Shown: positions 6,107 through 36,044 of the stretch, piece after piece
How positions within the stretch are numbered: the first letter of the stretch is position 1
Layout of the letters: each line of letters starts with the position of its first letter
Assembly: GCA_008632985.1 (NCBI GenBank)
Contig: QPGO01000097.1
Span: 186,001 to 250,000, forward strand
Length of the DNA: 64,000 bases
Source of the DNA: Psammoneis japonica
Taxonomy: Eukaryota
Reading direction: 5' to 3'
Made by a program: the position numbers and the translations under genes
Notes under the pieces: model-generated
Told to the model about the DNA's origin: nothing
The model's database searches: none
Seen by the model: the letters and a program-made list of their open reading frames with translations, nothing else

Positions 6107-8313
6107 AGTGTCTCTTTATTAACCCGACAGTTTAGAAGAGTTTTTTTACACAGTACGCCCAGTCAGCATTGTATACAAGGTGGTGTAGAACTTCATAACT
6201 GCAGATGCACAACAGGAAGGAGCTCTGAAAGACCTTCATCTTCATCCATCTAGCCCTATCGAGATGAAGGGTGATGCAACCGCTGGCATTGGCAGGAGAG
6301 CGCGGAACTATGAACTACGGTAGTTGTCCCTACACCCTGTTGCCCTGTAAGTAACGTGAGCGGTTGATCCTTCAATCTAGGGCCGCGTGGTGATGGTGGT
6401 TCGTCCTTTCACATCGATTTTGGTGCGTTTGTCTGACGTCTGACCCGCCCGGACTCCGACACGCGATGGACACAGTACACGAAGCAGGGGATCCACCGCA
6501 GAAATGGCAGCTTCTGGCGGAATCGCCCACACATCCAGCACTTGGCAGACAGTGGGTTTTCTTTTCCATGGGCTGATGAGGGCTGGGGCCCTGCTTGGCA
6601 TGATGAGCCTGTGACAGAAATGCAGGGGATTTTGAGTGCTCTGCGGTTTGCTGTGATGGGCACCAGAGAAAGGTGGTGCAGCATGTTCACACCCTCTCTT
6701 TGTTCCAGACATTGACTTTGTGCTGAGTGCTTTGCAAAAGCATGTGCTGGTCATGGAGACATGACAAACTGGCTTGTCCAAGAGGTGGTGATGTGCTGTC
6801 CTCAGATTTTGTGCCACTGGCGGCACAAGTCTCTGCAAGTGCCTGCTGTCAGATGGAGAAATGTGTGCTGAAAAGGAAGCATCCAAACATGAAATGGCCA
6901 AACCCATCAAGAAAAAAAGAGTGTGGTTTGACACTTTCAGATGCAACCTGATGTTGTTGGGATTTCCTCAGTTTTGCTCTTCATTTTTTTCTTTGTGGCG
7001 GCAGCAGAGCAAAAAACAACTCAGCCAACTGCCGAAGTCAATGCCGTGGCAAAATGACAGCACTCCCCAAGTGGAGAACAACAACAAAACAAAAAAGAGC
7101 CACAACAGATGCTGTCAAGACAAGCCACAATCATGAGGAAATTAGAGCTGCCATGAGCTGCAGCTGCAAGACAAGTGCTCTGCACGGCGGGCAAAGTTGT
7201 TCTTTGCCACACTTTTTCAAAAGTGCCGCAATGCTTGTTTGCATCAAGTGTGGTGCTTGCTGTGATGAGAGCATTCTTTGACAGAGTCAAGATCACACAC
7301 AAACTCAACTTGGCAGAGACGGCAGCAATCATTGTTGTGATTTGGACCACAAGAAAAGCAATGGCTGCCACCCGGTCCCCTCACATTGTTGTTGAGGCAG
7401 GGGATTTGTCAAAGCTGTCAGCAAGAAGAATGCTGCCAGTGCAATTGCCAGAAAGTTCAGAAAATGACCGTGTGCAACAGATGGTCAACATTGGAGAACT
7501 CATTTGGTGTTTGGAACAAGGGGTGACTCATCAAGCTTTGGCGGCCAGAGGTCAGTGGGTCTGGACAGTGCCACACTCAAGGCACTGGAGTTGTTGCTGG
7601 GTTGCTTTGTTCTTGTTGGGTTGCTTTGTTCTTGCACAAGGCAGCACAAGCACAAGGAGCACTCTCATGGGCAACTCACCTGCAGCAGAAGTCAAGTGAG
7701 ACAAGACAAGTTGCGCTGAACTGCACAAACAATGTCCGCCCAGCTTCCAACACAAAGTGTCTTGCAAGTCAAGCTGAGCTGAAAAAGAACACCAAGCTTT
7801 TGTGAATGAAGACTGGTCAAGGTTTTTGCTGCAGCTTCAAAAAAATGTCCCAAGGAAGAAACTAAAAAGAGCCAGAGAAAAGAAACACTGTTCACACCCT
7901 TTCTGCTGGCTCAGACCCCACACAAAGTGGGCTTTCATTTGTTGGATGCAGGAAAGCACTTTGTTTTGTAGCAGAAGGAGTGCGCAGCACCAAGAAGTTG
8001 TCCAGGAAAGAGTTGGAAGCCTCTCAAAAGAGCAAGAGAAAGCAATTGCATCACAACCTGGAAACAACAGCTGCAACAGCAAGCCCACAGGAAAAGCAAT
8101 CCAGCAACAGCAGCAGAGTGCACATCAAGGCATTGGGAGAAAAGCTGTCCAAGCATGTCAAGGAAACAGCAAAGAACACAAGAAGTGGCCTCACATGACA
8201 TTTCCAACCTCATTCAACAGTGTGTGTGGTGCAAGAAGCAAAAGAGTTGAGAACAGCAAAGCACAGCAATGTGTGTGGCAAACCATGCTGTGTCAGCTCA
8301 GTGTGCATGTTCA

Positions 8314-9070
8314 TGTTGGAACATTGGGGTCAGTGGCAGTTGTTGGACCATTGGGGTCAGCGGCAGTTTTTGTCATGCAGACACCAGACAGAGTTGCAGT
8401 GTGAGGCACACTGATGATTGTGAACAATGTGGCATGTTTGTGTTTGCAACTTAGATTGAGTTGTGGGTCTTGTGCTCATTTTTTAGCTTGTGCACCCAAT
8501 TGACATTGTGATGATGACTGGTGACAACAGTCAATGTGTTTGCAAGCTGCACAGTGAGTCAGGAGATGGTGAGACCAGCTGTGCAACAGTTGTCAAGCCA
8601 TGAAGCTCCACCAACACCAAAGCCAAAAAGTCACAGAACAACACTCAAAGGAGTGTTGTTGTTCAAGGGCTGGAAAGTTGAGAGACATCCACAGAACAAG
8701 GGCTGGGCAGTCAAGACGGATCTGCAGACAAGGGCTGGGACATCAACAGGAATTCAAATGAAAGGGCTGGGAGATCAGCAGGAGTCTGAAGGCATGCTTG
8801 TGTTGGAAGATTGCAGCAAATGAGCCAGCTGGATGAGGGCAAAGAAATGATCTCCGGAGGGCGTTGCTGCCAAAAAAGCTGTTGAGAGGGTCTGCTGAAG
8901 CAAGGAGGGCATGGCAAAGTTGCATCAAGGTTGGCGAGACAGAGTGCACAGATGTTGGTGAGCCATGATGCACTAACATGAGTCCCGGAAATGTGGGCAA
9001 AGACACAAATGAGTGTGGAAGCATGAAAGACTTCCAGGGCAGAGCAGGCGTGTGCTGCCATTGCCAAGTG
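8314..9070 (+). mobile_element. Degenerate 5' LTR and leader of a copia-like gag element family
   Basis: Starts TGTTGGAACATTGGGGTCAG (start duplicated at 8341); homologous to LTR copies at 12826, 14885, 16483(-) and 26344(-); 8930-9010 matches the reverse complement of 26000-26080. Confidence 0.6.
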
Positions 9071-9189
9071 AGGAAGCCAGGCAAATGGTTCATCAGACCA
9101 CCGAGCACATTTTGTGGACTTCAACACTCTTGCCTCATTTGGAAACCCCTCCATGGATTTGCCCCATTTCTGATTTGGCAACCTTCAAG

Positions 9190-12100
9190 CCAATTCTCCC
9201 AAACACGTCACCACCCATTTAGAAGTTGTGGCTCCCATGGGGCAGAGGCATGCAATGCATTGGCAAGATCTGAGGTGTTGCATGCAGCGCACTCTCTGAA
9301 TCATCATCTGGCCAAACGCTTGGATCAAGTCATGCTGCAGCTCTCATTGGCAGCAGCGAAAGAATGCAAAAGATGCAAGGAACCTGAGTGGTCCCTGAAA
9401 CTTGCAGCTCTGTGGAAACAAGTTTTTGTGCTGTCCAGAATGATTTTGATGTTCCGTGACCACATGAACATTTTCCCTGCAGTCCTCCCTGCCAAACACC
9501 AACTTTCTGACTCCTTCTTACTTTCCACAATGCTGCTTGAATGCTCTGCCATTTTTAGACAGGCTCAAAGTGAGTGTCGCAGGGTTGCCAAAGAAAGCCA
9601 AAAACACTGCTGAGCTGGAATTGGACAGAGAACAAAACAGTCCCACACTCAAGCAAAGATTCGTCTTTGTAACTTGCATTGTGCCAAAGAAACCAAGAGA
9701 GTCTTTTGAAAGATCAATCTTTGTTTGAGTCTACAACCATGGTCATGTGGACAACACATCCAAACAAGTCAACAATTTTTGTGCCAGCCCCCAACCATCT
9801 GTGTTCAACCCATCCCTGTCTCTTCATTCAGATGGCCAATGGTGGTGCAATCTCCTGGATGCTGCAGGACATGAACCAGAACTGCCCAAATGCTCATTCC
9901 ACGCAATCAAACAGGACTTTGCCAAAATTGGCAAGCTGTGCATCCCACCCTGCCATGACAACATTGAAATTGAAATCTTCTCAGCAGATCAATCCACTTC
10001 AAGGTCCAGCAAACAACTTTTGGCGTGTGTCCCACACAAAACTCTTGGTCATTACATTGTGCCAATTGATGCTCAGAAAAGACTCAGTTGAACAAGTTAA
10101 AAATGAAGAGTGCTGCAGCCATGTTGTTCCTGCAGTTTTGTCTACTGGATCAGGTCAAATCCTGGAGGTGTCATCATGCATGTTTTCTGTTGTCCATGAC
10201 GTGCTTCCTCCCCAACTCAAATTATCTCCCCAATGAACCACAAATGGTGCAACAGAAAGCAGTGTGGATCATCTTTGCCAAATGTGGACACAACAGGGAC
10301 ACCAAGCATCTTGTCCTGTGTGGCCCCCAGTGGAGAAGGGAAATCATCAAGGATGCCACTGAAATTGGGAAAAGATGCAAAGGTGCCATGCAAATCACTC
10401 AAAATGTGCAAAATTTTTGTCTGCATGTGTGTGGATTCTGATTGTGCTGCAGCACCCCAAGTTTTGTGTGGGACATTGTTCTGCAGTCCCAGGCAATTTT
10501 GCACAGAAATTTGCTGGATCAACTGTTGTTGATCATGCTTGCAGGTTTTGTTGGTGTCTGATGTTGCCTTGGCAGATGGTCTCACCTTGGACATTGTGAA
10601 AGTAAAAGGAGATCCTTTTGTCTGCAGCAGTGTTGTCCTTGAACAACATTGAGCAACGCAAGCCTGGAACAAGAGCTTGGCACCACCTGCAGAAATTTTG
10701 TGCCTTGTTGTGTCATCCAAACTCCTTTCTCCTGAAAGAGCCACCAGGGAACTGGCTTGTCCCTCCTTCTACAATGAGGATGCGTGTGTCTGCATGCTTC
10801 ACTCCCTCTGAGGAACACTTGCGTGCTCGGAATCATGCAAAGTTTGACATTTTTCCAGTCAAAGGCACTCAAGCAACAATGCTGACAGAGATAGAAACAG
10901 TTCCAGATCTAGCCAAGGAATCCTTCCCAGTTGATTTGACTGCATTGGCAGGTGGGTTTTTGCTCTGCCCTGCACCTCAGTGTCTCTGCAACCAGAAATT
11001 GTTCCCCCGGAGTCCTTCAGTGACTGTCTCCATCCCTCCCACCAGCAGTGTTTCGAGAAGGTGGAGCTGCTGGTGTCTCCTCATGCCTTGGTGCAACTTT
11101 TTATTTCCTCAACACTCACGGCTGGCAGCGATGGATCCAAGGGATGCATCTCAAGTGCAGCCATTCCCTCATTGCCATTCACATCTGTCAGTGGGTGATG
11201 GCACAGTGACCTCCAACTGGAAGACACAGATTTGTCATGTGGCCATCCCCCCAGCTGCTGGAATGCACAGCTGAGTGCAACCAGTGGAGACCGGATGCAG
11301 CGGACTTGACAAATTGGAAATCTCATGCAGCCCTTGTCAAGCAACACTCCAAGCAACATGTCAACACAGTCAAGCTGGTCCACAACCTTCTCCCTGTAAA
11401 TGAAATTATGAACCAATGCAATCCAGTCTGTACCCACACCACTGCTTGACCTGCAAACACCCCATGGAGGATGGGGATCACACATCCTCAGATGCCCAAA
11501 CAACAAAAAGTGGAGAAGAAAATTCTTGCAAGGCCTCTGGCTTCACTGTGATCAGATTGATGCCATGCCACCACTGCAAGATTTTCTTGTAGCCTCCTTG
11601 GAGGCTTGGCTGAAAAACAAAATGATGCATGCTGATGACATCAATTGCAGATGCAGAGCTCTCTGGGAATTCCAATCGGACATTGGATGGCACCAAGCAT
11701 TCAATGGCCATTGTTCTTTTCTTTGCAATGTCACACAATCAGGCCATTTGCATGGCTCAGAAATCCTCAACCAGCACCAAGAGGAGAACAAGCAACCCCC
11801 AAATTGGATGGTGCAGATCAGATCACACACAATGGCTGGAACTCTGGAAGCAGGTCAGCACAACCAGTTGGTTCATGGACACAATGCAGACACCAGGAAA
11901 TCCTCTCAAAGGCATCAAGCAGAGGCTGAATTGACAGCAACATGCAAAAAAACGCCAGGAGCATTTGGCAAAAGATCCCGGAGTTCTGTTGGACAACTTG
12001 GAGGAGCACAAGACTTTCTCTGCAACCAGAACACAGAATTGGATCTCCATGGTCTGTCTCAGACTCAAAGAAAGTTTTGAGGAAGCAAAACATTTGGTGC

Positions 12101-12280
12101 TTTGCAGCACACACACAATTGCCAGCCATTTCCATTGGGTGTCTCCATCTGGAGGTGCTGCAACCAGCCAATTGCATTGTCTTCTGCCGCACCCCTGGCA
12201 GGGTGCACCGGAAGTGTGGGTTGAGTGGTGCCGGTGTTGCAGGGCAAAGGTGTGACAGCACTTTAAATTGGTTTTTTTTT
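9190..12280 (+). mobile_element. Degenerate non-LTR retrotransposon (LINE, diatom Ambal-like) ORF2 remnant
   Basis: Frameshifted motifs WCNLLDAAGHEPELPKCSFH (~9843-9903), PHKTLGHY (~10031), QSDIGWHQAFNGH (~11672) and WLELWK...VHG, resembling diatom LINE ORF2 from recall. Confidence 0.6.
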
Positions 12281-13481
12281 TTGTTTCAAAAATGATGCAA
12301 GAACTGGTTTGCAGGTGTGGTTGAAGTGGTGAAATCATCCTGTGGCAGGATTGTCCCAGAAGAAATTGCCAAGAAAGAAGATGGGTTTGACAAGAATGCT
12401 GACAATGACACCTGGAACAAAGAAAGAAACAAGTTGTCAATGGTGATGCCAGCAGAGAAGGCACCACAGATTGTTGGCATGTCTTGAAAGACCTGCATTG
12501 GCAGCTTACATTGGGGGTTGGCATTTGCCCCATTTCAGCCAAGGAGGCACTGCAGGTGTTGGGAAAACTTTGCAAGACCACCAACAAAAAGCCTGATGGC
12601 TCAAGTTTTGTGTGGAACAAGAAGCAGATTGGATGCTGAGGTTGGGCATGTGAGAAGAGATTGTCCCAACAATGATCATTCATCAGCAAAGTCAGATGCT
12701 GTGGTCCATGGGAGTCAGTGGAGAAGAGTCGATGTGGTGCTGGGTGGTGCACTGGATTCCAAGTGTGGCCCTCCTGTCCTTGATGCAAATGAGGCCAATC
12801 AGCTGATGGCCCATGTGAAGGAGTGTGCTGGAACATTGGGATTGAAGGCAGTTTTCATGGCACAGACAGACAAAGCTGCAAGATCAGATGCACTGATGAC
12901 TGTGGATGATCATGTGGCAAACTCATGATGTTTGAAACTCAGTTTGGGTTGTGGGACTTGTGCTCACTTTTTTAGCTTTTGCACCTGGTTGGTGCAGCAA
13001 TGGTGGTCAATGGCATCAGCAATGTGTTTGCAAGCAAGTTCAGAGTCAGCAAGACCAAATGTGTGCCAGTCAGTGAGCTGTGAAACTCACATGCATGATT
13101 TTTGTCAGAGAGCTCAAAAGGGCAAAAATGTGGCATTTGTGTCATTTTGTCCTGACCTGCTTCGACGTTTGGTGCCCAAGGGGCTCAAAAAGGCAGGTGG
13201 AACATTTGCACAATTTTGTCCTGGATGCCCACCCTGGTGCTCAGTGCTCAAGACAAGACAGCCCAAAGTGTTGTCACCTTGTGTTGGTGACAAGAACAGT
13301 TTTTGGAAAGCTCCCAAGGTGACAAATTTGATCACATGGGTGCCACCTTGGTGAGGATGCAAAGCCCTTGCAGCTTGGTCATGCACAGCCAAGAACACAG
13401 CACCCACCCAGAGCAAAACTGCACAGCAAATTCTTCTGAACACCAGCCACAGCACCCCCTCAATGCAAAACAAGGGGAAAA
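10334..13481 (+). repeat. Left arm (~3.15 kb) of a large inverted duplication
   Basis: Reverse-complement match to 15828-18977 at the ends and at several internal points; the ORF track shows near-identical peptides on opposite strands (e.g. MQKNARSIWQKIPEF, MKLSLGCGTCAHFF). Confidence 0.93.
12290..13090 (+). mobile_element. 3' part of gag-only LTR element: gag zinc-knuckle relic, PPT and 3' LTR
   Basis: VGHVRRDCP (~12640-12667), then GAAGGAGTG|TGCTGGAAC at 12826; mirrored at ~16230-17010 (-). Confidence 0.6.
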
Positions 13482-13959
13482 CAAACATTGCCATCATTTC
13501 TGCCACACATGATGTCTCCACTTCTGCTCTGGCCTTTGCTCTAGATGCCATTTGGCTCACCTTTGTGACAAAATGACAGAAGAACATTTTTTGCCTTGAG
13601 CAATCTGCTGCATTTTCTGCAACACACACTTGCAAGCCACCTCACTTTGTTTTGTCTTTTGTGCCACTTGACAAACCAAAAAGATTTTAGCAATGGGGCT
13701 GCAACAATGCCAAACAATGTTTTCAAGTGACTTGCCAGCTTGTGCATTTCTCAAGTCTTTGGATCTGTGCAATTTTTGCCATCTTGTCAACAAGCTGCAG
13801 GGTTTGGAATTTTGTGGCCCCTTCTGCTTGTTGTTTCCAGCCTGGATGCTCAGGCAGCTCAAGCAACTTGTGCGCCCTTGCCTTGCACCAACAACTGCAA
13901 AAGCCTTGCCAACTTGTCTCTGATGAGACATGCAAACTGACAAGATTGTGAAAAGTTTG

Positions 13960-15140
13960 ACATTGAGCATGTGGCTGCACCACCCCCCTGATTGTCCATC
14001 GGGAGACACTGCATTGGAGAAGGACAAGGTGGTCTGGGGCAAGAAAAGCAATCACTGCATTGAGCAGAGAGTGCAATCTGCAAGATGCAGAAGGCAAAGG
14101 TGTTTGACATGATCATGAGGCAATGTGCAAAGGCCACTTGTCACAAGCTTGAAAGAGTGGAGTTTGCAAAAATCACAAAGGAGCAGGATGTGATGGCGCT
14201 GTTGAGTGCTCCCAAGTTAATCTTCTTTGTTGATGCAAATGAGAAAATGAACCTGCATGATGTCCAGGTGGTCAAGGCTTGGAAGCAGTTGGCACTCATT
14301 TGTCAAGATGAAGGAGAGAAGTGCTTCAAGGCTGTTGCAGCTGCCAGCTCATGATTCATGAGTGTGGGTGAAGTGGCAAAATCGTCCTGTGGCAGGATCA
14401 TCCCAGAAGAAATTGCCAAGAAAGAAAATGGGTTCAGCAAGGATGATGCTGAGATGACACCTGGAGCAAAGAAAGGAACAAGTTGTCAGTGGCATTGCCA
14501 ATGGAAGGTGCCACAAAGGATCATTGGCTGCATGTTGTGGCTGAAAGACCTGCATTGGTGGCTCACATTGGGGGTTGACATGTGCCCCAGTTTGGCTGAG
14601 GAGGCATTGCATGTGTTGGACACTTGTCAGACCAACAAGAGTTCTGAGGGTGCAAGTTTTGCACAGAACAACAATGAGAAGGTTGTGTGCTGGAAGTGCT
14701 GCAAAGTTGGACACACAAGGAAGATTGTCCTGAGAGTGATCATTCCTTGGTCAAGTTGGATGATGTGGGCCATGGGAGTTGACAGAAAAGTCAACGTGGT
14801 GCTGTGTGGCATGGTTTTCAAGTGTCTTCCTCCTGTGCTTGATTTGCACAAGGTCATTTGATTGTTGACTTGTTTGGAGGAGTGTGTTGAAACATCAGGG
14901 TCAGAGGCAGTTTTTGTCACATGGATAGACAGAGTTGCAGCGCAAGATGCACAGACAATTGTGGACAACATGGCAAGTTTGCTCTCATGACATGGATTGA
15001 GTTGCAGGTCTTGTGCTCACTTTTCAGCTTCTGCTCATGGTTGATGTGGCAATGACAACCAGCAGCAACAGCCAATGTGTTTGCAAGCCACATGATGAGT
15101 TGAGAGATGGTGAGACCAAAGCAATGTGCAACAGTCAGCA
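13960..15140 (+). mobile_element. Degenerate gag-only LTR element: gag, zinc knuckle, PPT and 3' LTR
   Basis: KAKVFDMIMRQC...KLE...DVMALL (copia-type gag), CWKCCKVGH (~14690), then GGAGGAGTG|TGTTGAAAC at 14885. Confidence 0.65.
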
Positions 15141-15827
15141 AGTGGCAAAGCTCCAACAGCTCAACTCCTTTGGTCACAATGATTGCTTGGCATGCATCTG
15201 CTGATGTCCTTGTGAAAACACCCTGCTCTTCATCTGTCTGTGCTGCAATCTCTGACCAGCGCTCACAGGAAATGGAGAGAAAGAGATCTCATGCTGCAGT
15301 TGCAGAGATTTTGATGTGAGGCAAGAAGACCAAGGTTCTTCAAATTCAGCACACACAGAAGGAGGTTTGAGCTTTGAGCTGCAAAAAATCCTTGGAGCCA
15401 TGTGCCACCCAAGTGCAAGGGCCAATCTCCCAGAGCCATTCTTGACAAGGAAGCAACAAAGATGTTTTGTTGTTGGAAGCATTGTGCCCACTCATCCCCT
15501 CCTGGTGGAGAGAACTCAGAAGCTGCTCCCATGAGAGGGTTCTTCATTGTGTGGGTGCTGACCATCACAGCACCACACACAAGCAAATCCCAGAGTTGAA
15601 AGCAAAGCAAGCAAGGCAGAGCAGAGCAGATGAAGCAGGCATGGCACAACACAGCAGCAGAAACATTTTGTTGACATGTTGCACTTCTTGTCAGTCAAAA
15701 ATCAAAACATGAAAATTTTGACACTCTGGGCATGCAAAGACATGCAACAAAAGTGCAGCAGGTGCAACTTGCTTGCAGCACAGCAGGTGGCACCCTGCCC
15801 CATTCATTTGACAGAGAAGAGTGGCAC

Positions 15828-18800: not shown

Positions 18801-18977
18801 TTTTCTGTGCAAAAACGCCTGGGACTGCAGAACAATGTCCCACACAAAACTTGGGGTGCTGCAGCACAATCAGAATCCACACACATGCAGACAAAAATTT
18901 TACACATTTTGAGTGATTTGCATGGCACCTTTGCATCTTTTCCCAATTTCAGTGGCATCCTTGATGATTTCCCTTCT
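15828..18977 (-). repeat. Right arm of the large inverted duplication
   Basis: 18961-18977 TTGATGATTTCCCTTCT is the reverse complement of 10334-10350; 15828-15865 matches 13444-13481. Confidence 0.93.
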
Positions 18978-24240: not shown

Positions 24241-24400
24241 TCTTTTCCCCGTTCCCTTTTTCCATCGGAACCTCATGACCGAACATCTTCTGCTCCGTTT
24301 TTGATTGAAATCAATCGCAGCTCCAATCTGTGTTGTCAACCTGTTGTGCAATCCATCCAATTTCAACATCACATTGACTCTGAGACTGGCTCAGAGTCTG

Positions 24401-25027
24401 TCACAACATCTCTCCTGTTTGTGCACGGACTTGATCACCCAAGTCACTCACAGGCAAAACCAGTTCTTTCCAGTTCTCCATCAACTGCTGTGCAGTGGGA
24501 TTGGCTGCAGACAAAGGGGCATCACCCCTCATTTGGAGGCCATGCTTCCTTGAAGGAAGGCAGAAAGGGAAGACTCTTGTCTGCATTGTGGAAGACAGGC
24601 AGCATTGATGGCTGGGCCTGCCTTGCAGAAAATCTGAATTGTCGACTTTGGTCATGGAAGTGTCCTCAGGAGGGTTGTGTGTGGAAGCACCAGCTGGAGT
24701 GGATGAAGCAGGCTTTTTACATTGAGGAGAGGTGGGGGCATCTGGAACTGAGGAAGCAAAGGTCTCTTGAATCATTGTCTGCAGCTGAGCAGCAAGAGCA
24801 GTTTGCAACCATGCAGCAAGATCATTTTTCAACTGGGTGGCACAAGTGGAGATGGGTTCTTGATGCTTCCGTTCGAGGGTGGCAAAATGCTTCCATTGAT
24901 CCTGTTGGTTTTTAAGAACAAGTTGTTGCAGTTCAGCAATTTCAATTGACTGATTTGACATTTCTGAGACAGGGACAGCACCAGGGATGACTGCTCTGGG
25001 TGTGTTCCTCAGAACTTGGGGGAACAA
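24401..25027 (-). mobile_element. Possible LINE ORF1-like coiled-coil fragment
   Basis: Tyr-free 208-aa ORF with a heptad-like stretch followed by a Pro/Ser-rich SPQCKK tail, inside the TE block; family assignment is a guess. Confidence 0.3.
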
Positions 25028-25199
25028 GTTGGAAAACTGCCATGTGCACCCACACTTTTGGAGCTAGATTGGCTTCTGATTCAGCAGATGCAGGAGCTGC
25101 AGAGCCGGTCAGGAAAATGTCAGAAATGTTTCAGACACCCAACTCTGAACACCAGTGGAAGAGATGGGTTGAACAGTGTTGGACATGTTGTTGCTGATT

Positions 25200-26344
25200 C
25201 TGGGAATCATGGGTTTGGGCTGACTCTCTGGGATTCCTGCCTTGACAGTGATCACATTGAACCATTCCAGAAGACATTTGGAGATGCAATGTTTGGCCTG
25301 ATGAAAATGATCCTTGTCAACCAGAATGTTGCACCTTGGGATGGCAGCAAGATTCTTGGATGGTGCAACATCTGTCACTCCTGTGACCCGCACAATTGCA
25401 TTGGACAGACAGAACAAAATTGCTTCAGCACAATGAAGCACTGGAATGACATGGGTCTTGACACTTGTTTTGCATTGTTTTTACACTGCTTTGTCAAAAG
25501 CCACTGGTTGGTCACAATGCCAGTGGGATGAGACAAGTGCAAGGAGGGGGTGTTCCTTCAGAGCTTCCAACAAGGCATGAATCATGTCTTTGGCTTGGTC
25601 ATGGGGAGTTTTGACAGCATGGAAATTGGCATGCAAGGATTGGTCTTTCAGAGATGTGGCAGAGACGTGTTCCAATGAACAGCTTCATGCATTGCCCCAC
25701 AACCAAGTTGGATGCCTTTGCCTTCTGTGTCTTGTAGATTGCATCATTCTGTTTCACATGGTGGTTGTGCCGCTGCTTGCCCCAAACTGCCTTGTCCTTC
25801 TCCTCTGACACAGTGTCTCCCAATGGTTGGCTCTGGTCTTTTGGCATGCTCTCCTGTCTCAGAGACACCAGCACCTGGTGCATCTCTGACATGCTTGCCA
25901 ATCTTTTCCATTGTTTCCATGCAAAACCATGTTCCTGTCATCCCAACTTGACAAAGGCGCGGCACACACCCACTCTTTGAAATGTTTTGTGCTGCCGCAC
26001 TCAGCTGTGTCCTTGCCCCCATTTCTGGAACTCACACTGGAGTGACATGGCTCACCAACATCTGTGCACTCTGTCTCAGCTTGCCAACCAGTGTGTTTTT
26101 AGTCTTGCAGACTCCAAACTCACCGCATGGCTTGCAAACACACATGTTGCCAACACACTGTTGACTGCTGCTGCCATGCATGTTGGCCGGGTGCAGAAGC
26201 CAAAAAGTGAGCACAAGACCCACAACGCAAACCAAGCTGCAAACACAAATTTGTCATGTCATTCACAATCATCTTCAGCACATCTTGCACTGCAACTTTG
26301 TCTGTCTGTCCTGTGAAAACCACCTCTGGCCCCAACGTCCAACA
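25200..26344 (-). mobile_element. 5' LTR plus degenerate gag of the same gag-LTR family
   Basis: Minus strand starts TGTTGGACGTTGGGGCCAGAGG at 26344; EKDKAVWGK...KAKASNLVVGQC is homologous to 14000-14130. Confidence 0.65.
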
Positions 26345-26424
26345 GCCAATGGCCAAAAAAGGAGCCAAGAAGGTTGGAGTCCAGAGGCTGAAATGAGGGC
26401 ATCAGAGAGCAAATGGACTTTGCT

Positions 26425-27095
26425 GCTGCCAAGGGACAGAAGGATCAAAGGTGAAACCTCTTTTTTCCCTCCAAGGGACAAAAGGTTTGGGTGCAAAACC
26501 TCTTCGCCCTCCAAGGGAAGATGGAATGCTAAAAAGTGAGAGCTTCTGCCCCCAAGGAAGAGAAGGTGTCAATTTTCAAGCAAAACTTTTTGACCCTCCA
26601 AGGGACAAAAAGGTTTTAAAGACAAAACCTTTTCACCCTTCAGAGGGCTTGGAAGCAAAACCTTTCACACCCTCTGTCATCACACCCTCCAAGGGATGGA
26701 GAGTGGAGAGGGTTGTTCGAAGGAGCTGAAGCACCGCCTTCAAATCCTCCATCCAGAGGGAGACAAAAGAGGGTTTTCAAAGTGTGAGACCTTTTTGCCC
26801 CCAAGGGACAGAAGGCACCCTCCAAGGGATGGATGGCCAGAAAGTGAAACCTTTTTGTCCTCCAAGGGACAAAAGGTTTTTGAAAGTGAGGCCTTTCGCC
26901 ACCCAACTGGGGGCAGAAGGTCAAACTTGAAACCTGCTCACCCTCCAGGGAGGGACAGAAGGTTTTGGGGTAAAAGTTTTTCACCCTCCATGGGATGGCA
27001 GGCCCCAAATGAAAAACCTTTTCACCCTCCAAGAAGAGGGGCAGATGGTTTTTAAAAAAAGTGAGGCTCCTTTTCACCCCCCAAGAAGAGCATCA
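26425..27095. repeat. Degenerate ~40-bp tandem array with palindromic core (AAACCTTTT-n-CCCTCCAAGGGACAAAAGGTTTT)
   Basis: About 15 recognisable copies of a CCCTCCAAGGGA-like core at roughly 40-bp spacing. Confidence 0.85.
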
Positions 27096-27123
27096 GGGGT
27101 GTGCCATGTGCGTGCGCGTGAGA

Positions 27124-27354
27124 TTCTAGCCCTAGACTCCAAGCCAAGCAATGAGAGGAAGCTGTGGCTGGGTGAGTCGCGGGGGTCATCGCGGAGGTAG
27201 ACTAGCGAGGGACAGACGGGAGGCCGAGGACGGAGGACAGACGGACGCGACGAGATCCCAGACATGACCAATCCACGCATTGTTCCCTTGGCAGTCAGCA
27301 TCAGAGGGGTGCAACCATGGTCCACTGCAGCAACCATGTCTCATTGCAAAATTA
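27124..27354 (+). repeat. Split direct repeat A1
   Basis: Matches 35578-35808 with 3 differences found (27132, 27259, 27332). Confidence 0.95.
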
Positions 27355-28214
27355 ACACTCTGTTGATGATTGCTAAGGATCGGGGAGCGATGTGCGTGCC
27401 CCAAACGTTCATTTTGTCAAATTCTGCGCTTGTGACAGAGCAATTTGACTGGGATTTCGGAACCGACTCATGAACAGTCGTTGTTTCCGACCCCTCTCCT
27501 TTTTACTGTGCCAATGCGGCAATGCCTGCTGTTGAGAGGACGGTCTCCTCTGTGCAACCAAATGCCACTTTCCTGATGACCGCTCAGTGCACGGGTTGTT
27601 CCCTCGCGGTGGCAATGGCCGCATGCCATCGGCCATGGTTGACTCCCTCGCTGGGACGAGGGTGGAACCATTGACACATTCACAAATGTGTGCCTCCTGA
27701 CAATGGCATCTCTCTTTCCTGCACACCAGTCATTCAACTGCCAGTCCCGCACGCTTGGCGATCGACCATGTGATGTGTCCATCTGCGCCACGAATGTTTC
27801 GATGCAGGCACGGAGCGTGTTGGGTCCTCCAAGTGCCAGTGCCTGCTTAAGAGCAACCGTTGCACAGGGTTTGCGGTTCACATTGTTTGCAGCCATTGAA
27901 AATTTTGAAAATCCAAATTAAACACCATGAGGAATCGTGTCGTGTCATCTCCGTTTTAATCATGATTTTCGAAAGTCATGGACAGGATGCTCCACCTGCA
28001 GAGTTCACGGCCGGACGCTGTGAGAGGGACTCCTCATAATTTCCGAAGTCAGCCATTTGCAACGAGACCGTGAAGTCATTGTTCAACGACCATGTTTGCT
28101 CCTTCCGCCACTGCTGTCCAGCGGGTTCGTGGTGCTGCCAACCAGCACCACACGACAGCGTTTCCATTCTCTGACGAGAACGCAATGGTCCTGGCTTCTG
28201 CGCTTTGACCAGGT

Positions 28215-30947
28215 GTGAACCATGAGGTTCACCACGCTGTCGCATCTGATCCGATGAAAGTGACCCAGTTTGCATTCATGCACTCAAAGCGGATCATGAT
28301 TCTCACCCGCCCTCAAGTGTTCACTTCGACGGCAGGGACTGCCTCTGTCATTGGGAGCTTGTCGGACGAGATTGGGAGTCATGCCCCAGTCTCTGTCGCT
28401 CTCGACTCCTTTCGAGCATCGATGACTTCGCTCCTCACGTTGCGATCGGTCACGGCTTTCCACCTTCCCAAGTTGGATCAGGCGCCGGATGCTGTTGATG
28501 GTCCAACAACTTTGGACGTGTTCCAGCCGCACGTGAACCAAATCGTGCACAAAAACGACATTTGCGCGATTTTTGCGCGGTCCCTAACTTACGATCGAAC
28601 TTTCACCACCAAAAGTATAGATTTATCCAAATGTGAATGTTTTGCAACACTAACAAGACTCGTGTGAGTGTTGCAATGTCATTGTCATTGTGCTGTCTAT
28701 GTTTTCCATTGCGTTAAAAGATTCGCAACACAACGGATGATTTTCGGCGAAAACATTGCCGTCATTTGGATGTTGCCTGAACACATCTTTCTACAATGCC
28801 ACTTGGTGGTTTTCTACCTACAAAGAAATCTCAGTGTAAATCCACTGACGTACAATCAGCATTGAGTCAACTGAGGAAGTTTGTGACACATGTCCCATGA
28901 GGACTTGAATGCCCCACAAAAAACTGTTTAAATGTTCATGCTCTAGACGCCTGTAAAAGCCAATCCGCTCAAGCATTTTTGTGAAAATGCTACATGCACT
29001 AAAAGATACATAATTTACACTCAAAATCGATTGTCGTTTTGTGCGTCACCTGGGACTGGAACACGTCTTTGCTGGAGGACGACCGGGTTGCATCCATGGG
29101 GCGTCTACACTTCCCGCCACCTGCGGCTGCGGACGACCATCCGCGGATTTCTGTGCCACCGCCATTCCCACCTTTGCCGCCAGGCAAGACTTTCCCCAGT
29201 GGCATTCCTGTGGATGAGCCCACTCCGGAGTTGGACGCGGATTTCCCTCTGGGAGCTGCATGGAAGCGTGGCATGCAATGCATTGCAGCAAACAACGACG
29301 AGCGCTCGGTTGCGAAGGGCGGCCCTTTGTTCGATGCGAGCCAGATTGACGATGCCGCGGATTTCGATGGTTTCGACATCGCGAATCGTCTGTTGCAAGT
29401 GGATGATGTGAGCATCCTGGCGCCTGTCACGGACTCATGCCATTCGGTCAAGCAGTCTGTGAAGGCTTTTGATGCCCTGGCATGGGGCTCCCCAGGAGCA
29501 GATGCTGATGCGGATGATGCAGCGGCGCCGGCAGTCGGTGGTGGTGGTGACAATGGCGGCATGACAAACAACCAAATTGTGGCGTTGTGTCAAGGGATTG
29601 CTGCAGCACCCCGTCCCCCTGCTTGGAAGGAAGAGGAGCGTCTCGAGGTTGCCACTGAGCATGCCCGGCGCTGGGGGTTGGTTGCGGGGTGTGTTGCTCC
29701 TCCGCCTGGTGGAATGGGTGAAGCGACGTTTGTTCTTGGAGAACTGCGCCCAGAATTTGTGGTGGCACTCAAGGTCTGACAAATTTGTGACCACCCGCAA
29801 ATTTTTGGATCTGGTTGCCCAAGTCTTGGCTGGGTTGTGTACGAGCAGTTCCTTTCTGGACAAGTCGGCGCACTTGTCGCACGAGGTGATCAATGAAGCG
29901 TTCACCACGAGTGTGCGTTCGTTCCACATGCATGCACAGCCTGCAACCTGCAGCGTGCAGGCTCTGCTGTCCAAGTTTTCCATTGTTCTTCTTCTGGAAC
30001 CTGACACGGCGACTTCGACGTGGGAGACAATCATGGATGAACATTCCAGTCTCCCGCTGCAGGAGCAGTGCAGTCAGTCGAAGTCGGACGTGGAACTGTC
30101 TGCCCTCAAGTCGTCAGTTCTGTGTGCTCAGGGAAGGATCAACACGCCGAAGGACATCACTGCTGCAGCATGTAACCTTCGTGCTTTTGGACCATGTCTG
30201 ACACCGGACTTCGACCAATCTGCGTTGTGGAAGTCGGTCAAGTCGCACCACGACGTGCTTGACTCGGAGCGTGGCGCCGAGTGGCTGGCACGTAATGCCA
30301 AATCACCCCAGGCATTGGTGAATGCACTGTTGGACATTCAGAACATCCTGGCGGAGTGTTTGATTGTCGGCAACCAGCCAGCGCATTGCAAGGCGATTGG
30401 CGCTGGGGACACTGTAGATCCGAGGATCTGCGACCAGGTGAGTGTGATTGCGAAGCAGCTTGCTGCGGAGTTGCAGACAGCAATCTCGTCGGGCCGCCCG
30501 GGATGCTGCAACACCATCACGGACGTTGCCAGAAAGCTCATTCCGGCATTGACCAAGTCAGACAAGTCTGCCCCGGTGGCAGCTGCAGATGGTGAGGCAT
30601 CTGAACCTGCCAAGAAAAAGCAGAAGACGCTTCTTTCGGATGAAGAAAAGGAGAAGCGTAAGAAGCTTGGCATCCTTGTGTACAGTGGCAGTGGCAAGCC
30701 GCCGCAGACCTGCCCAGTCTATGCCAAGAAGTCTCGTGACTCAACGGCAGAAGAGCGTTGCTGCACAAACTTCATGATGGTTGGGCGTTTCTGTGCCAAT
30801 GCGAACTGTCCGAAGCCTCACATCACGAATGCTAAAGTGTTGGGCAATGAAAAGGAGCAGCAGTTCTGTGGCTGGGTTAAAGAGACTGAGGGACTCAGTT
30901 TCGCACCTGGAAAAGGCCCTGCTGGTGAGGCTGCTGTCCAAACATGA
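28215..30947 (+). pseudogene. ORF1/gag of the YR retrotransposon, interrupted by a MITE and a frameshift near 29770
   Basis: ORFs 28215-, 29039- and 29577-30947; removing the MITE joins DGPTTL|LEDDRV in frame; C-terminal CTNFMMVGRFCANANCPKPH finger. True start uncertain. Confidence 0.75.
28515..29067. mobile_element. 553-bp MITE (non-autonomous DNA transposon)
   Basis: Perfect 12-bp TIR GACGTGTTCCAG/CTGGAACACGTC; inner inverted GCACAAAA(A)CGACA; 4-bp TSD TTTG (28511-28514, 29068-29071); AT-rich interior. Confidence 0.88.
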
Positions 30948-31156
30948 GCGACGCTCAATTGGAGACGATCATCGGTTGTGACACCATCCTCTGCTGTTTC
31001 TGTCTCTGATGGATGGCATGCACCAACGAACTAATCCTTTGTTTTGATCTTTGTGTGTTCATTTGTCACTGCAATGACGAAGCATTGCACAATGCGAGTC
31101 CAATCGTTCCTCTGTTGTCCGATTCATTGGCTTCTAGTTTGGGATTTGATCCTGTG

Positions 31157-33881
31157 ATGTCGTCAGGTCTGGCCGTGGAACCGTCACAGGCAGACATTGA
31201 CAAAGCAATGGGGAGCAAGGTGGATCCCCTTCCCGAACCGGAAGGTTTCTACCCAGTTCTGTCACAGGTCACGAAGGACACTTTCGGGTCACCACAAGAC
31301 TTGGTTCCCACCATCAACAATTCGTTTTGCAAGGCGGAGCGCGAGGCATGGAAGAGCACGTGTCTCCCGACCTCGGTTCAAGCAGCATTGGACAACCATT
31401 TGGCAAGGAATCAACATCGCAGTGTTTTCTTGCAGAAGCGTGTTTGCGACATGTGCTGATGCCACTGCGGAAGTCGGGGTTTCTGACTGTGTTGGAATGG
31501 ATGCAGTTTGCGGAAGCCATCCCTGAGGTCACGGAGTTCACAGCTCTGTTGGCGAAATGTGGTGATGTCAACTTCGGAGAAATTCGAGGATGCGCCAAAG
31601 ATTGGAAGAATGTCACCAGTGTGAGCCAGGAACATGTGGATGTGGTGTCCGCAGCGTTGCTGCATTTGAACGGGGATGCAGCTGCTGCTGTCCGGTGGAT
31701 TGGCGGTCCTCACATCGGACAGCACCGCCATGTTGATGCGATTGAGCGTTTTTTGAGTGGAGTGCTCGATGAGCAGCATGTGAAGCCACTGATTGCCATG
31801 TGCCGACACGGGTCGCCGTCATTCTGCAATGCAACATCAACGGAATCGAATTTCCAAGCGTGCTTCCAGCATGGCAGCCATTTGAGTGTCGACTCTGATC
31901 CAGAGAAAATGCTTAAAACGGTGGTGAAAGACGCGAAGAGGGGCCACACAATCCCATTTGATCGGCGCTTGATTCCGTTTCTGCTCAACTGTCATGTAAT
32001 GCCTCAAGGGATCGTTGATTTGGACAAACCGTGTGAGACTCCTCGCCCTGTTTTTGACAGCTCTTTTCGCCCAGAGAAGTGGAATGTGGCCATCAATGAT
32101 TGGATTTCCAAAGATGCGGAACCTCTGCTTTCGGACGAAAGCGCAGAGATGGATCTCATGAAATGGATCTACAACTTGCGCATTTTGCATCCGATGGAAG
32201 AAATCATGATTGGAGACGACGATGTCGGGGGGGCTTTTCATGACAACAAGCACCCACCAAACCTGGTTTCGATGCATGCCAGTGTCCAGGCAGGGTTTGG
32301 GACATTGCAGACTGGAAACAATTTTGGGGACAACATGAACCCATCAAATTGGCAAGTCATTGCAACAGCACATCAGCAGCTGGCGCGGATGCCATGGCAT
32401 TCATCGGAAGCAATTGAAATGACTGCTCCGTTCATGCCGGAGATCCGACATTGCGAGGCACCCAGCGATGAGGAAATTGCAGCATTTGCACCTGCAACTG
32501 CAGATTCCGCTAACAGAGGTGTACACGATGAAGAGGGTTTTCGATTGGCGCCACCTCACACGCATCATGTTGACGACAACATGCATGCGGACGTGAGGGA
32601 GCACCTGCCTCGGACGTTGATGGCCAGTGCCCTCTCCCTGTTCTGTGTGTTGGGTTTTCCGCGAGAGGAAGTCCCATTGAGTCTCAGCATGGAGAAACTC
32701 AACACTCTGTTTGGGCACACCCGCCGAGTGGTCGGGCGGGCCTTTAATTCTTGTGCGCCAGCGATTGGTGTGCTGGACTACAAAAAGGAACAGCTGATTG
32801 AAATGCTTGCAGTGTGGATTGAAACTGTTGTCACTTGCGACCTGGTGGACGCCACTGGTCTCAATGGTTTGCTGAGAATCACACAAGATGCACGCGTTGG
32901 GCACGTCCTCTTTTTTTCCAACTTCAGAACGAAATGCGAGCCGCCTTCAAACAATGGTTCTACACAGTTCGGCGACAGTGCAAGAAAGAAGTGAGGACGG
33001 AACAAATTCTCCACCAGCTGCTGAGTGCTCAGCACAAGCGAGTTGATCAGATCGTTGCGAAAGAGATGGCGGCATCACTCTGGCAAACGCGAGCGAAGAT
33101 TCGCATGTCGGACGCGCTCCGACACTCCCTCGTCCTGATTGGGCATTGTCTTCAGACAATGCCTGACTCTTTCTCAGAATGCGTTGGTTTCATTGCACCA
33201 AGAGACCCCAACATCCACAGTTGGGGGGACGCCTGTGCGGACTCTGGGGGAGGTGGGTTCTGCCCCACGCTCAAGTTCTGGTTTGACATCGGATGGAGCA
33301 AACGCGTTCTGCACGGGGTCAATCATGCTCGGCCATCGACACAAGGGCATCTCCATGTCAACCAGTTGGAATTCCTAATTGTGGTTGTCCAATTTGCAGG
33401 AATTACAATGAGACTGCACAGTGTGATGAGGCAACAAGCAGAAAGTTACTTTCCGAATGGGGTGCCCCCTCGGCCAGTTGCACTTGCCGAATGTGACAAT
33501 GCCACCTCCGTGAAATGGAGCAACAAGGCATCTTCTACGTCGCGCAATGCTCAGGCCATCATTGCCTTTTTCTGTGAACTCCTCCATGACTCAGGGATCG
33601 GGCATGACGCTCGATGGCTCGCGGGGATGCTGAATGAGTTGGCGGATGCCATTTCGCGCCAACCCAACTTTGCTCTTCCTCTTTGCATTCGTTGTGCTCA
33701 GCTGTGTCAGACGTGGCCTGTGATGAAGGACGGGGACTGTTTCCTCCCGAGTCCCGAGCTGCTGCAGGGCCTCTGCTCTGCTCTGTTCTCAGTGTCAACA
33801 GCGGCGCCAGTCAAGATCCCAAGAAATTTGGGACAGTTCGTTCGCGCAGAATCCATTGCTTCTGGTTTGCCCATGATGTGA
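31157..33881 (+). pseudogene. pol (reverse transcriptase and RNase H) of the YR retrotransposon, frameshifted
   Basis: PRPVFDSS, DDDVGGAF, NFGDNMNPSNW, HVDD (32566); RNase H WGDAC, HVNQLEF, CDNATSVKW, GMLNELADAISR. Confidence 0.88.
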
Positions 33882-34954
33882 ATTGGCACAAGGACAATCT
33901 GGGGATGACAATGCAGAACCTTTCCCTGGAAAGGTGCCAATGCATGATGGCAATCCATGCGTTGCATCTCGCTTCAGGGTGCACATTGTTCTGCAAGCAG
34001 ATCAAGCTTGACACAACAAAGCAGCACCTGCTTGCAGTGGCGACGTTCTGCGCGTTGTTCAGCAAGGTTGCAAGGGACACACAGAAGATGAACCCCATGG
34101 AGAAGGAGTTCTGTCCCCTGCTCAAGAATGTGTTTGAACATGTGCAGGAGTGTGAGGACGAACCTGACCGCCGTGAGCCTGTCACCCCGGAGATGACACA
34201 AGAGCAGATCCGCCGTGGGGAGGTCGCAGCAGAAAAGGAGCCGGATGGTCTCGTTGCCATCCAAGGCGATTGGAGCCAAGTGGCGCTGTCTGGTGGCTTG
34301 CGGTGTGGTGAACATGCTCAGTCAAAAAATGAGAAAAGCCCGCAGCGCCTGCAACAAAATTTCAAGAACGACACCGAAGCATTTGCTCTGCGTGACGTTC
34401 GAATCCAAACGAAGGACAGGAAGCGCCGCAAAGGAGCGGATGTTGCCGATGCCCCACTGAGCAGCATTGATCTGATGTGGATCAAGTTCCGCACTCAGAA
34501 GAATGGGGACAACGGTCAAGAAATCAAATTCAAACACAAGGCATTGTCGAAGATCAGCTGTGTCCGAGCGATGCACCGGATCACATGCCGTTTTGCATGG
34601 TTGCGGGGACGGAACGATCATGAGACACCCTTGTCGACACACAAAAGTGAGAAGGACGGTCTGCAACTGCTTGCTGCAAATGACATTGCGAAGGAACTTT
34701 GGGGCATTGCTGCAAAGCTGCATTCCCTGCACCCGGCACGAGACGCCGATGCCATCAAGCGTTGGACTGGCCACTCGCGCCAAATTGGAGCATGCTGCAT
34801 GTGTCACAGCATGGGGATGTCGTCAGTGGACCTCAAACGTGAGCTCCGCTGGAGATCGGACACATTCATGAGATGCCTGCGGAACACAAACATCCTTGCG
34901 GAGGCAAAGAACGACGCCATTGACAAGGCTGTTTCCCTTCCAGACTTGTTCTAA
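33683..34954 (+). pseudogene. Tyrosine recombinase of the element, catalytic Tyr replaced by Cys
   Basis: GLRCGEH, FRTQKNG, WTGHSRQIGA and LRWRSDTFMRCLR (TGC at 34874 where the catalytic Tyr is expected); zero Tyr in 423 aa. Confidence 0.9.
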
Positions 34955-35361
34955 ATTGGGGCTGTGCCCAACAAAGTGGCCTCCCAAACTCAGGGTGTGA
35001 AGACGGATGTCATGCGACCCGTTCCCTCTCTGGGCGATGTCAGCTCACACACTGTTGACCTTGTGTGTCAATAAATTCCGATTTCAAATTCGAAATTTTC
35101 ATTGACAACTTCATGCTGTAGATGACACACCTCAGTGAGGAGGCAGTGCGAAAGTTGTGACGATTTACCGCCTTTTTCTTCCATTTCTGCCGTGTTCCCC
35201 TCTTTTTTGTCTGTCTTTCTTCTCTTTTTTCTTTTTTTTTTCTCTTTTTTTCTTTTTTTCTTTTTTCCGGTGGATCTCACCTCCGATGACATGGGCGCGG
35301 ACGTGCGCACGCCTCTGGTGTGTTTCACTGTCAGGCGCATGCGCTGCGTCGGCTCGACATG

Positions 35362-35577
35362 GGCTGTTTCGGCACAGTGCCGGATATCCTCTATTTTGTC
35401 TAGGCTACGTTGCTGTAGACCTTCAGACTCGCATATCCGGGTTCCTATTAGCTACTACTTCTACGGTGCAACTACTACTGTCTATTGTACACCCTAGATC
35501 TAGTGCTGTGGATCACTGTTGCACGTCATCGAGGTGCTGATCCGCTGAGGCGGTGGCCGGGAATCCCATGGGGATTC
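35362..35577 (+). repeat. Split direct repeat B1
   Basis: Identical by eye to 35829-36044. Confidence 0.95.
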
Positions 35578-35808
35578 TTCTAGCCGTAGACTCCAAGCCA
35601 AGCAATGAGAGGAAGCTGTGGCTGGGTGAGTCGCGGGGGTCATCGCGGAGGTAGACTAGCGAGGGACAGACGGGAGGCCGAGGACGGAGGACAGACGGAC
35701 GCGACGAGATCCTAGACATGACCAATCCACGCATTGTTCCCTTGGCAGTCAGCATCAGAGGGGTGCAACCATGGTCCACTGCAGCGACCATGTCTCATTG
35801 CAAAATTA
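35578..35808 (+). repeat. Split direct repeat A2
   Basis: Matches 27124-27354. Confidence 0.95.
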
Positions 35809-35828
35809 TCCCACCTCATTCCCACCCT

Positions 35829-36044
35829 GGCTGTTTCGGCACAGTGCCGGATATCCTCTATTTTGTCTAGGCTACGTTGCTGTAGACCTTCAGACTCGCA
35901 TATCCGGGTTCCTATTAGCTACTACTTCTACGGTGCAACTACTACTGTCTATTGTACACCCTAGATCTAGTGCTGTGGATCACTGTTGCACGTCATCGAG
36001 GTGCTGATCCGCTGAGGCGGTGGCCGGGAATCCCATGGGGATTC
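35829..36044 (+). repeat. Split direct repeat B2
   Basis: Identical by eye to B1; separated from A2 by the 20-bp spacer TCCCACCTCATTCCCACCCT. Confidence 0.95.

Follow-up and report, generated by a model that had tools for sequence, protein, structure and literature searches.

What has removed the dinucleotide TpA from two long tracts of a diatom contig, and left it in the genes on either side? The question is raised by 64,000 nucleotides of Psammoneis japonica (contig QPGO01000097.1 of assembly GCA_008632985.1, positions 186,001 to 250,000 of the forward strand; the whole stretch is called the window here), in which two gene-free islands of dead transposons contain almost no TpA (TA) steps. 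The mutation recorded in these islands is directional, specific to TA, limited to these regions and has acted separately on each copy; it is probably the product of a TpA-specific process that turns TA into TG or CA in diatom transposon islands and spares the neighbouring host genes. A sequence-only reading of the same DNA had claimed a directional TA>TG/CA change on both strands of unrelated sequences, confined to transposon islands, and this claim is supported by composition, by proteins, by repeat copies and by relatives.

The composition of the islands differs sharply from that of their surroundings. In the pooled depleted blocks (38,025 nt) only 148 TA steps are left, an observed/expected ratio (o/e) of 0.06, against 960 steps and a ratio of 0.59 in the pooled flanks (24,201 nt), which bears out the reported near-absence of TA over transposon DNA between normal flanks. 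The TA o/e ranges over 0.02-0.13 at 8-27 kb, 0.09-0.22 at 28-34 kb and 0.03-0.24 at 44-54 kb; in the genes around the islands it is 0.5-0.77. Both TG (o/e 1.74, flanks 1.13) and CA (1.70, flanks 1.15) are enriched in the islands and CG is reduced (0.36 against 0.97), and the remaining eleven dinucleotides, AA, AT and TT among them, are essentially the same inside and outside. At the flank ratio the islands would hold 1430 TA, a deficit of about 1282, and the corresponding deficit of CG is about 1430. The surplus of TG and CA together amounts to 2761 and matches the sum of these deficits (1282 and 1430); the two losses therefore account for the gain. Approximately nine in ten TA steps of the two islands are now TG or CA.

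The limits of the islands are abrupt. The first island begins with its older part (6480..27100; 0-4 TA per 500 bases, CG also nearly absent); to the left of it TA is dense up to 6378, is followed by a single TA at 6476 and then is not met before 7143. At the right edge the 500-base bin from 34501 contains one TA and the bin from 35001 contains 19. Beside host genes the borders are thus sharp to about 100 bases in this one 64-kb window. The depleted region had been given as 6480..35050. It is real, and a second island, equally depleted and missing from that description, lies at 44415..54720 (approximate borders; 0-5 TA per 250 bases). TA does return near 35050, and this edge falls within a retroelement, not at its border. 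Both islands are flanked by host genes, among them those for S-adenosylhomocysteine hydrolase, importin beta, Ndc80, an inositol monophosphatase and a protein resembling choline transporters.

The loss of CG follows a different course. A CG o/e of 0.05-0.3 is found in the older island parts only, where TA and CG have been lost alike; at 28-34 kb it is about 0.8. In the retroelement that carries a tyrosine recombinase (27124..36044) and in the stretch at 44.5-48 kb, 80-90% of TA has been lost and 70-80% of CG kept. The second island shows a moderate loss of CG at 44.5-48 kb and a strong one at 48-54.7 kb. Since TA is gone where CG is largely intact, with TA lost and CG not lost at 28-35 kb, the removal of TA is the faster and earlier process. 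The decay of CpG to TpG/CpA would then be separate, slower and ordinary, as in methylated transposons. Deamination of 5-methylcytosine at CpG explains the CG>TG/CA share in the older islands and feeds the same TG/CA sink, but it is unable to remove TA. Fungal repeat-induced point mutation (RIP) was rejected as an explanation as well: TpA is removed and CpA gained here, the opposite of C>T at CpA. The earlier argument that neither RIP nor CpG deamination can explain the TA loss holds, with about 80% of CG intact at 28-34 kb.

The direction of the change can be read from proteins. A tyrosine codon becomes a histidine codon by TA>CA and a cysteine codon by TA>TG in the sense strand. The second island contains a full-length, host-type pseudogene of NTM1 (protein N-terminal methyltransferase; 47419..48211, minus strand), split over three frames by two frameshifts, with diatom proteins as its closest relatives and six TA in place of 52 expected. 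It may be a retrocopy, a captured gene or the only copy that the organism has. Aligned to 50 homologues, it has kept none of the eight conserved tyrosine columns (six are Cys, two His) and 113 of 139 other conserved columns. The polymerase (reverse transcriptase) frame of the retroelement (31201..32994, plus strand), aligned to 53 homologues, has kept none of six (four His, two Phe) and 150 of 190 others. Taken together, 0/14 tyrosine columns are preserved against 263/329 of the others (Fisher p = 5.5e-10). Tyrosine makes up 0.3% of the polymerase frame against 2.1-4.6% in all 53 homologues, and at the 17 columns with at least 30% tyrosine the window has six His, three Cys and one Tyr. In the recombinase, the column of the homologues' C-terminal tyrosine (LYTRN) is Cys at 34874, and several other tyrosines are His. 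All conserved tyrosine codons examined in these three aligned protein regions have thus changed, mostly to His or Cys.

All six codons named in the sequence-only reading are correct. Three of them (22889 CAC, 23006 CAT and 23147 TGC) fall within the RVT_2 match of a first copia-type element, two (34313 CAT and 34874 TGC) within the recombinase, and the last belongs to the FLGC at 53161 of a second copia-type element; in the copia elements they presumably represent the motifs AYL, YG, YxDD and FLGY, named after the general consensus. A single frame contains neighbouring His and Cys codons, which means that both strands have been mutated, and the claim that TA>TG and TA>CA occur within one element is upheld by their interspersion in the polymerase and NTM1 frames. 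The same interspersion of TG and CA in single frames excludes editing of sense RNA only. Because a host-derived pseudogene and noncoding DNA are also affected, a codon habit of the elements or selection on them is ruled out. Two library homologues of the polymerase are themselves poor in tyrosine and rich in His and Cys: P0158 (39% identical, 0.26% Tyr) has His or Cys at six of seven aligned tyrosine columns and at two of them makes the choice opposite to that of the window, and P0222 has 0.82% Tyr. Both have probably been predicted from other TA-erased copies.

The changes described are transitions throughout, to which a purine/pyrimidine coding of the sequence is blind; such a coding recovers the homology of diverged copies. 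A CA/TG doublet between two copies represents one ancestral TA or CG that has been resolved differently in each. In three old repeat pairs 80 such doublets were counted, against 35 in all other double-transition classes together, and the repeat copies have thus been converted independently of one another. Paralogous contigs of a public sequencing run (X1) differ from the window by 365 transitions and 36 transversions; among these are many CA<->TG doublets in the recombinase element, most of whose CG survives. Further contigs of this run, at a word depth of about 65, are identical to the window at 21098-22218, 22710-23381 and 23624-24438, across dozens of former TA sites. The presence of exact matches in the run means that the TA-free sequence is not a product of assembly, and the pattern, which might have been absent from reads, is found there in the same sequence. 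The stretch is present in run X1 only, with next to nothing in X2 and X3, and no RNA run containing it was found among the sequencing runs searched.

A polarised spectrum has been obtained from metagenomic relatives. A metagenome scan with six intact polymerase homologues yielded 80 loci (L001-L080) with a TA o/e of 0.22-0.86 (median about 0.58); no close relative came up when the polymerase frame of the window itself served as the query. These values and the tyrosine contents of the 53 homologues show that relatives of the element are not TA-free. In two clusters, of 11 and 10 loci, each copy was compared with the majority of its sisters. Three of the 21 copies are strongly mutated, and their sisters have changed at 0-18% of TA sites. 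In L030, 39 of 53 ancestral TA have been converted (24 TG, 15 CA, 14 still TA, no transversion), against 4.4% transitions at other sites. In L036, 31 ancestral TA have become 13 TG, 6 CA, 10 TA and 2 other, and in L016 the 56 ancestral TA have become 1 TG, 21 CA, 31 TA and 3 other, a strongly one-stranded outcome. The TG:CA leanings of L030 and L036 (24:15 and 13:6) are opposite to that of L016, and single episodes may act on one strand. By eye, neither the order of TG and CA along L030 nor that of doublets along the arms of an inverted duplication in the window shows long strand-coordinated runs.

The reverse change, from TG/CA to TA, reaches at most 3% in these copies. With both strands counted, A>G reaches rates of 0.36 (L030) and 0.31 (L036) where T precedes the A, and of 0.00-0.075 where A, C or G does. 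The TA rate of these two copies therefore lies 5-11 times or more above the other A>G contexts, and no A>G excess after T is seen in the sister copies L021 and L005. The excess of TA>TG/CA that an alignment of copies had been expected to reveal is present, in metagenomic relatives rather than in the genome of the window.

The neighbouring base also matters. In L030, seven of nine ancestral TA followed by a purine (TAR) have survived, against seven of 42 followed by a pyrimidine (TAY; p = 8e-4), and wherever the base after a TG outcome is known (22 cases), it is a pyrimidine. The TA left in the window is enriched, relative to the flanks, in TTAA (approximately 3.4-fold), CTAA (2.6) and GTAA (1.7), with no survivor in ATAT and one in ATAC. 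In the element with intact CpG, the gain is largest for TGC, then for TGG and TGT, and nil for TGA. Owing to the preference for a 3' pyrimidine, tyrosine codons (TAY) make the best targets, and the stops TAA and TAG make the poorest.

The young retroelement provides both a clear view of the process and its most difficult feature. Its split direct repeats are arranged as A1...B1-A2-B2 (27124..36044, plus strand); A1 (27124-27354) and A2 (35578-35808) show three differences in 231 bases, and B1 (35362-35577) is identical to B2 (35829-36044) over 216 bases. In the interior (27355..35050, plus strand; TA o/e about 0.1, CG about 0.8) approximately 85-90% of TA is gone, whereas just 3 of the 447 terminal-repeat bases differ; the process probably outpaces ordinary decay. 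The TA that remains shows no clear 5'-3' gradient along the element. Within it lies a short-repeat insertion of about 470 bases (28560..29030) with 17 TA, a normal number. Its word depth in run X1 is 21,097, compared with about 65 for single-copy DNA, which suggests a repeat of roughly 300 copies; it may be a young repeat resembling a miniature inverted-repeat transposable element that postdates or escapes the mutator. A low-complexity tract of pyrimidines only (T/C) is located at 35200-35267, after the recombinase frame and before B1, near the end of the depletion.

Several of these and other observations weigh against a TpA-specific mutator directed at transposons. The terminal repeats, although no part of the element is more highly repeated, keep a normal TA content (5-6 TA in the 231 bases of A, 17 in the 216 bases of B); B1 and B2 agree at every TA, and A1 and A2 disagree at one at most. 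The roughly 300-copy repeat has also been spared from TA loss. Edges placed at spared terminal repeats are predicted neither by simple repeat targeting nor by the spreading of heterochromatin. A length threshold for recognition would fit the escape of the short repeats (231, 216 and about 470 bases) beside mutated long elements, a fit that in itself shows no threshold; a guide signal limited to the interior of the element would be another explanation.

The remaining reservations concern chemistry and scope. TpA is self-complementary, so A>G cannot be distinguished from T>C: of the earlier claim of A>G in TpA on both strands, the transitions of TA on both strands stand, and the base does not, as T>C fits this palindromic step equally well. 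The two arms of an inverted duplication (10334..13443 and 15865..18977; 3.1 kb, 96.4% identical, separated by a 2.4-kb spacer) have 664 TG/CA steps in common and differ by 13 TG/CA doublets, 21 CG<->TG/CA changes and 8 TA<->TG/CA changes. With so many steps in common and just 13 doublets different, the duplication arose after most TA had been lost. CG rather than TA could, roughly estimated, be the origin of about half of the 13 doublets, and the eight TA<->TG/CA differences could be new TAs made by ordinary transitions; given these other possible origins, the arms alone are no proof of TA conversion after duplication. The context figures of the window are approximate, as the host flanks stand in for the ancestral composition of the transposons. 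The metagenomic copies come from genomes other than that of the window. Run X1 is possibly the assembly's own source and so is not independent of it, and the pattern is known from one 64-kb window, which bears on its generality across the genome.

An enzyme, the base it attacks, its choice of targets and a role in defence may be brought together in a candidate mechanism. In the most likely chemistry, a deaminase resembling TadA or ADAT2 would convert adenine to hypoxanthine in transiently single-stranded DNA. It would need a 5' T, would prefer a 3' pyrimidine (T-A-Y), and would act on either strand in separate episodes. Coding capacity is destroyed through the loss of conserved tyrosine codons, and a slower decay of CpG to TpG/CpA would later strip CG from the same DNA.

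Other explanations have to be weighed against such a mutator. That there is no mutator at all, and that either sequencing or assembly has produced the pattern artificially or the elements are TA-poor intrinsically or through selection, is scarcely credible. The confinement of the sequence to one run, which may be the assembly's source, would suit an artefact, but contigs that match exactly at a word depth of about 65 cross dozens of former TA sites, and strand-specific misreading predicts all TG or all CA and not their fine interspersion. An intrinsic or selected composition is contradicted by noncoding DNA and a frameshifted host pseudogene that are equally depleted, by relatives that retain tyrosine and normal TA, and by the destruction of catalytic residues. 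Hardly more plausible is error-prone repair by a polymerase of the eta type (WA>WG, known from the A:T phase of antibody hypermutation), which had been named as a candidate. TA is one of the two WA motifs, and in L030 a preceding A goes with a slightly higher rate of A>G (0.075) than a preceding G or C (0.033-0.051). The other motif, AA, is not depleted: the o/e of AA is 1.21 in the islands and 1.12 in the flanks, that of AG is 0.99 and 1.02, the rate of A>G after A in L036 is just 0.022, and the TA rate is 5 times (L030) and 14 times (L036) the AA rate. Editing of RNA by an ADAR-type enzyme, fixed by retrotransposition, was also rejected, Tyr>His and Tyr>Cys being interspersed and noncoding DNA affected.

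Two further explanations accept the mutation and change its time or its target base, and both are unlikely. Hypermutation might have preceded integration, acting on the RNA or single-stranded cDNA of a retroelement, with the terminal repeats escaping as they become double-stranded early. This would account for the young element, in which a TA-depleted interior lies between TA-normal repeats of 99-100% identity, and for a copy-specific effect that has struck L030 and not its 91%-identical sister L021; the editing of human immunodeficiency virus by APOBEC3G is likewise lowest in the region of the long terminal repeat (LTR). The strand bias of L016 (21 CA against 1 TG) points the same way, but single RIP events in Neurospora are also strand-biased, and such a bias needs no cDNA stage. 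The first island is TA-free across 20 kb that include noncoding DNA and contain no TA-normal islands resembling LTRs, the pseudogene of a host gene (NTM1) has been mutated, though it is possibly a retrocopy, and TG and CA are equally frequent overall, for which both RNA and cDNA would need editing. In a preprint on the alga Bigelowiella natans, moreover, a comparable process was seen in real time on integrated DNA (bioRxiv 10.64898/2026.01.13.699255). It is about as improbable that thymine is the base attacked, a TET/JBP-type dioxygenase oxidising the T of TpA to 5-hydroxymethyluracil (5hmU) or 5-formyluracil and pairing with G giving T>C; the oxidised mark itself could be a silencing signal. 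Formyluracil pairs with G, and by the palindromic nature of TpA all observations fit T>C as well. According to a study of dinoflagellates, the thymine of TA and TC is the preferred site of 5hmU in Crypthecodinium, repeats contain most of the 5hmU loci and the mark silences transposons (PMC11572971), and this preference for TA/TC in repeats speaks for the thymine route. Against it, no sign of TC>CC is found, the o/e of TC being 1.00 in the islands and 1.16 in the flanks and that of CC 0.94 and 0.85, and base-resolution mapping of 5hmU in Breviolum reportedly found no motif.

The TpA-specific mutator preferred here has a close counterpart, contrary to the earlier statement that no such defence system had been described. 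A 2026 preprint by Mettrop et al. reports TpA-only hypermutation in B. natans: of the 231 mutations that mutation-accumulation lines acquired in two viral inserts, 230 were A>G or T>C and fell without exception on TpA, at a rate approximately 1000 times the background and in 11 of 15 lines (bioRxiv 10.64898/2026.01.13.699255). The same source lists 324 TpA-poor reading frames, enriched in reverse transcriptase and DDE domains. Its authors propose an ADAT2-like deaminase and name an ADAT2 homologue, without proof, and cite DNA activity of the TadA type as reported for a few homologues only (bioRxiv 10.64898/2026.01.13.699255). Both cases show transitions only at TpA that lead to TpG/CpA, a loss of TpA with a gain of CpA and TpG, a limitation to discrete selfish or foreign regions (integrated giant-virus and virophage DNA in B. 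natans), and perhaps a partial reach, some lines there and, among the metagenomic relatives, some copies here. The process in the diatom is of the same kind, and this kind is no longer undescribed.

There are also differences between the two cases. B. natans is a chlorarachniophyte (a rhizarian) and the present host a diatom (a stramenopile); viral inserts are mutated in the former, and LTR and tyrosine-recombinase retrotransposons together with a host pseudogene in the latter. The o/e of the viral insert is 0.45 in B. natans, whereas whole islands here approach saturation (0.02-0.1), with CpG decay superimposed. The 3' pyrimidine preference and the spared terminal repeats have been noted in the diatom, while extended context for B. 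natans may be given in the supplements of the preprint; the rate was measured in real time there, and here a footprint is seen only. No report of a TpA-loss footprint in diatoms or other stramenopiles, and none of a natural adenine-directed DNA hypermutation defence with an identified enzyme, was found in the literature searched.

Older systems share single features with the one described. Fungal RIP likewise produces dinucleotide-specific transitions in repeated or selfish DNA, with sharp limits, destroyed frames, independent action in each copy and single events that can be strand-biased. RIP makes TpA from CpA and targets C:G, in contrast to the A:T target in a non-fungal host here, so that the effect resembles RIP run in the opposite chemical direction. 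Enzymes of the APOBEC3 and ADAR type cause context-dependent, copy-specific bursts of transitions in selfish elements, and ADAR favours a U before the edited A. APOBEC, unlike the present process, edits C; RNA editing by ADAR fixes one sense, whereas both strands, noncoding DNA and a pseudogene are mutated here. In TadA and ADAT2-ADAT3, the edited A34 always follows U33, and the site of bacterial TadA is U-A-C-G. This built-in T-A preference, with UACG resembling the T-A-Y found here, is a likeness; the natural substrates, tRNA loops, are a difference. Dinoflagellate 5hmU is similar as a pyrimidine mark that prefers TA, lies on repeats and has a silencing role (PMC11572971); its nature is epigenetic, and erasure of TA by it is not known. 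From diatoms, in which no search aimed at it was made, the mark is not known either.

Tentatively, and with considerable doubt, an ancient defence could be common to diatoms and chlorarachniophytes across the SAR supergroup (stramenopiles, alveolates and rhizarians), in which a T-A-Y DNA adenine deaminase, effectively a base editor of natural origin, is guided to transposons and integrated viruses and erases TpA. If so, tyrosine codons and catalytic tyrosines would be killed while neutral DNA changes by less than 1%, and the spared terminal repeats would mark the limit of whatever guides the enzyme, such as small RNAs or the transcription of the element's interior. In the literature searched the phenomenon is reported just once, in a 2026 preprint on a rarely studied alga, and the same footprint at saturation in a diatom suggests that many marine protists share the process. 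Diatoms rank among the major primary producers, and some have genetic tools, with which the search for the enzyme and for its targeting can be put directly to the test. If it exists, a natural DNA adenine deaminase with T-A-Y specificity would be of interest for base editing. There are consequences for annotation as well: transposon libraries will miss TA-erased copies, and TA-free DNA, lacking TAA and TAG and retaining only TGA as a stop, offers long false frames in which gene finders would call many false proteins.

The polymerase of the recombinase element belongs to a large family. Behind the polymerase frame, the RNase H part (32823..33878, plus strand) continues in a shifted frame and is followed by the tyrosine-recombinase frame (33638..34951, plus strand). 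At E up to 0.001 the polymerase family counts 882 representatives; among metagenome stretches, 85 have been confirmed as relatives. No Pfam family matched the frames of the retroelement or four intact homologues, and no solved structure for the polymerase family was found in a profile search. Motifs like those of reverse transcriptase (HHVDD), RNase H and recombinase were read by eye in the alignments. The repeat layout of the DIRS order (A1...B1-A2-B2) is present, with the RNase H and recombinase motifs recognised by eye only, and the family appears to be a DIRS-order clade, marked by split direct repeats, that has not yet been catalogued.

Among the other elements of the islands, two degenerate copia-type elements have been identified by Pfam matches. 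The first (20536..24088, plus strand) retains a protease beta-barrel, an integrase SH3 domain and the RVT_2 reverse transcriptase, and the second (52262..53319, plus strand) a gag-pre-integrase and an integrase SH3 domain. A purine/pyrimidine-coded repeat search of the window found no LTR pair for either of them. The same search revealed a repeat unit of about 800 bases with two copies on the plus strand (12305..13088 and 14352..15153) and a partial copy at 8341-8615; agreement between the copies is 87-92% in purine/pyrimidine code and about 72% in letters, and 42 and 21 TG/CA doublets are counted among their differences. The first island contains 115 stop-free frames of at least 90 codons, of which two reach the Pfam curated cut-off, both with transposon families; none of the 115 matches a non-transposon Pfam family at this threshold, and the Pfam search of stop-free frames gave no protein signal in the rest of the island. 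To the left of it lies the S-adenosylhomocysteine hydrolase gene (4382..6106, plus strand), a host flank with normal TA whose sequence marks the host as a diatom. Its product is 85-92% identical to 119 of the 120 best matches listed, and among these the named ones are nearly all from diatoms (Thalassiosira, Cyclotella, Mayamaea, Craspedostauros and others).

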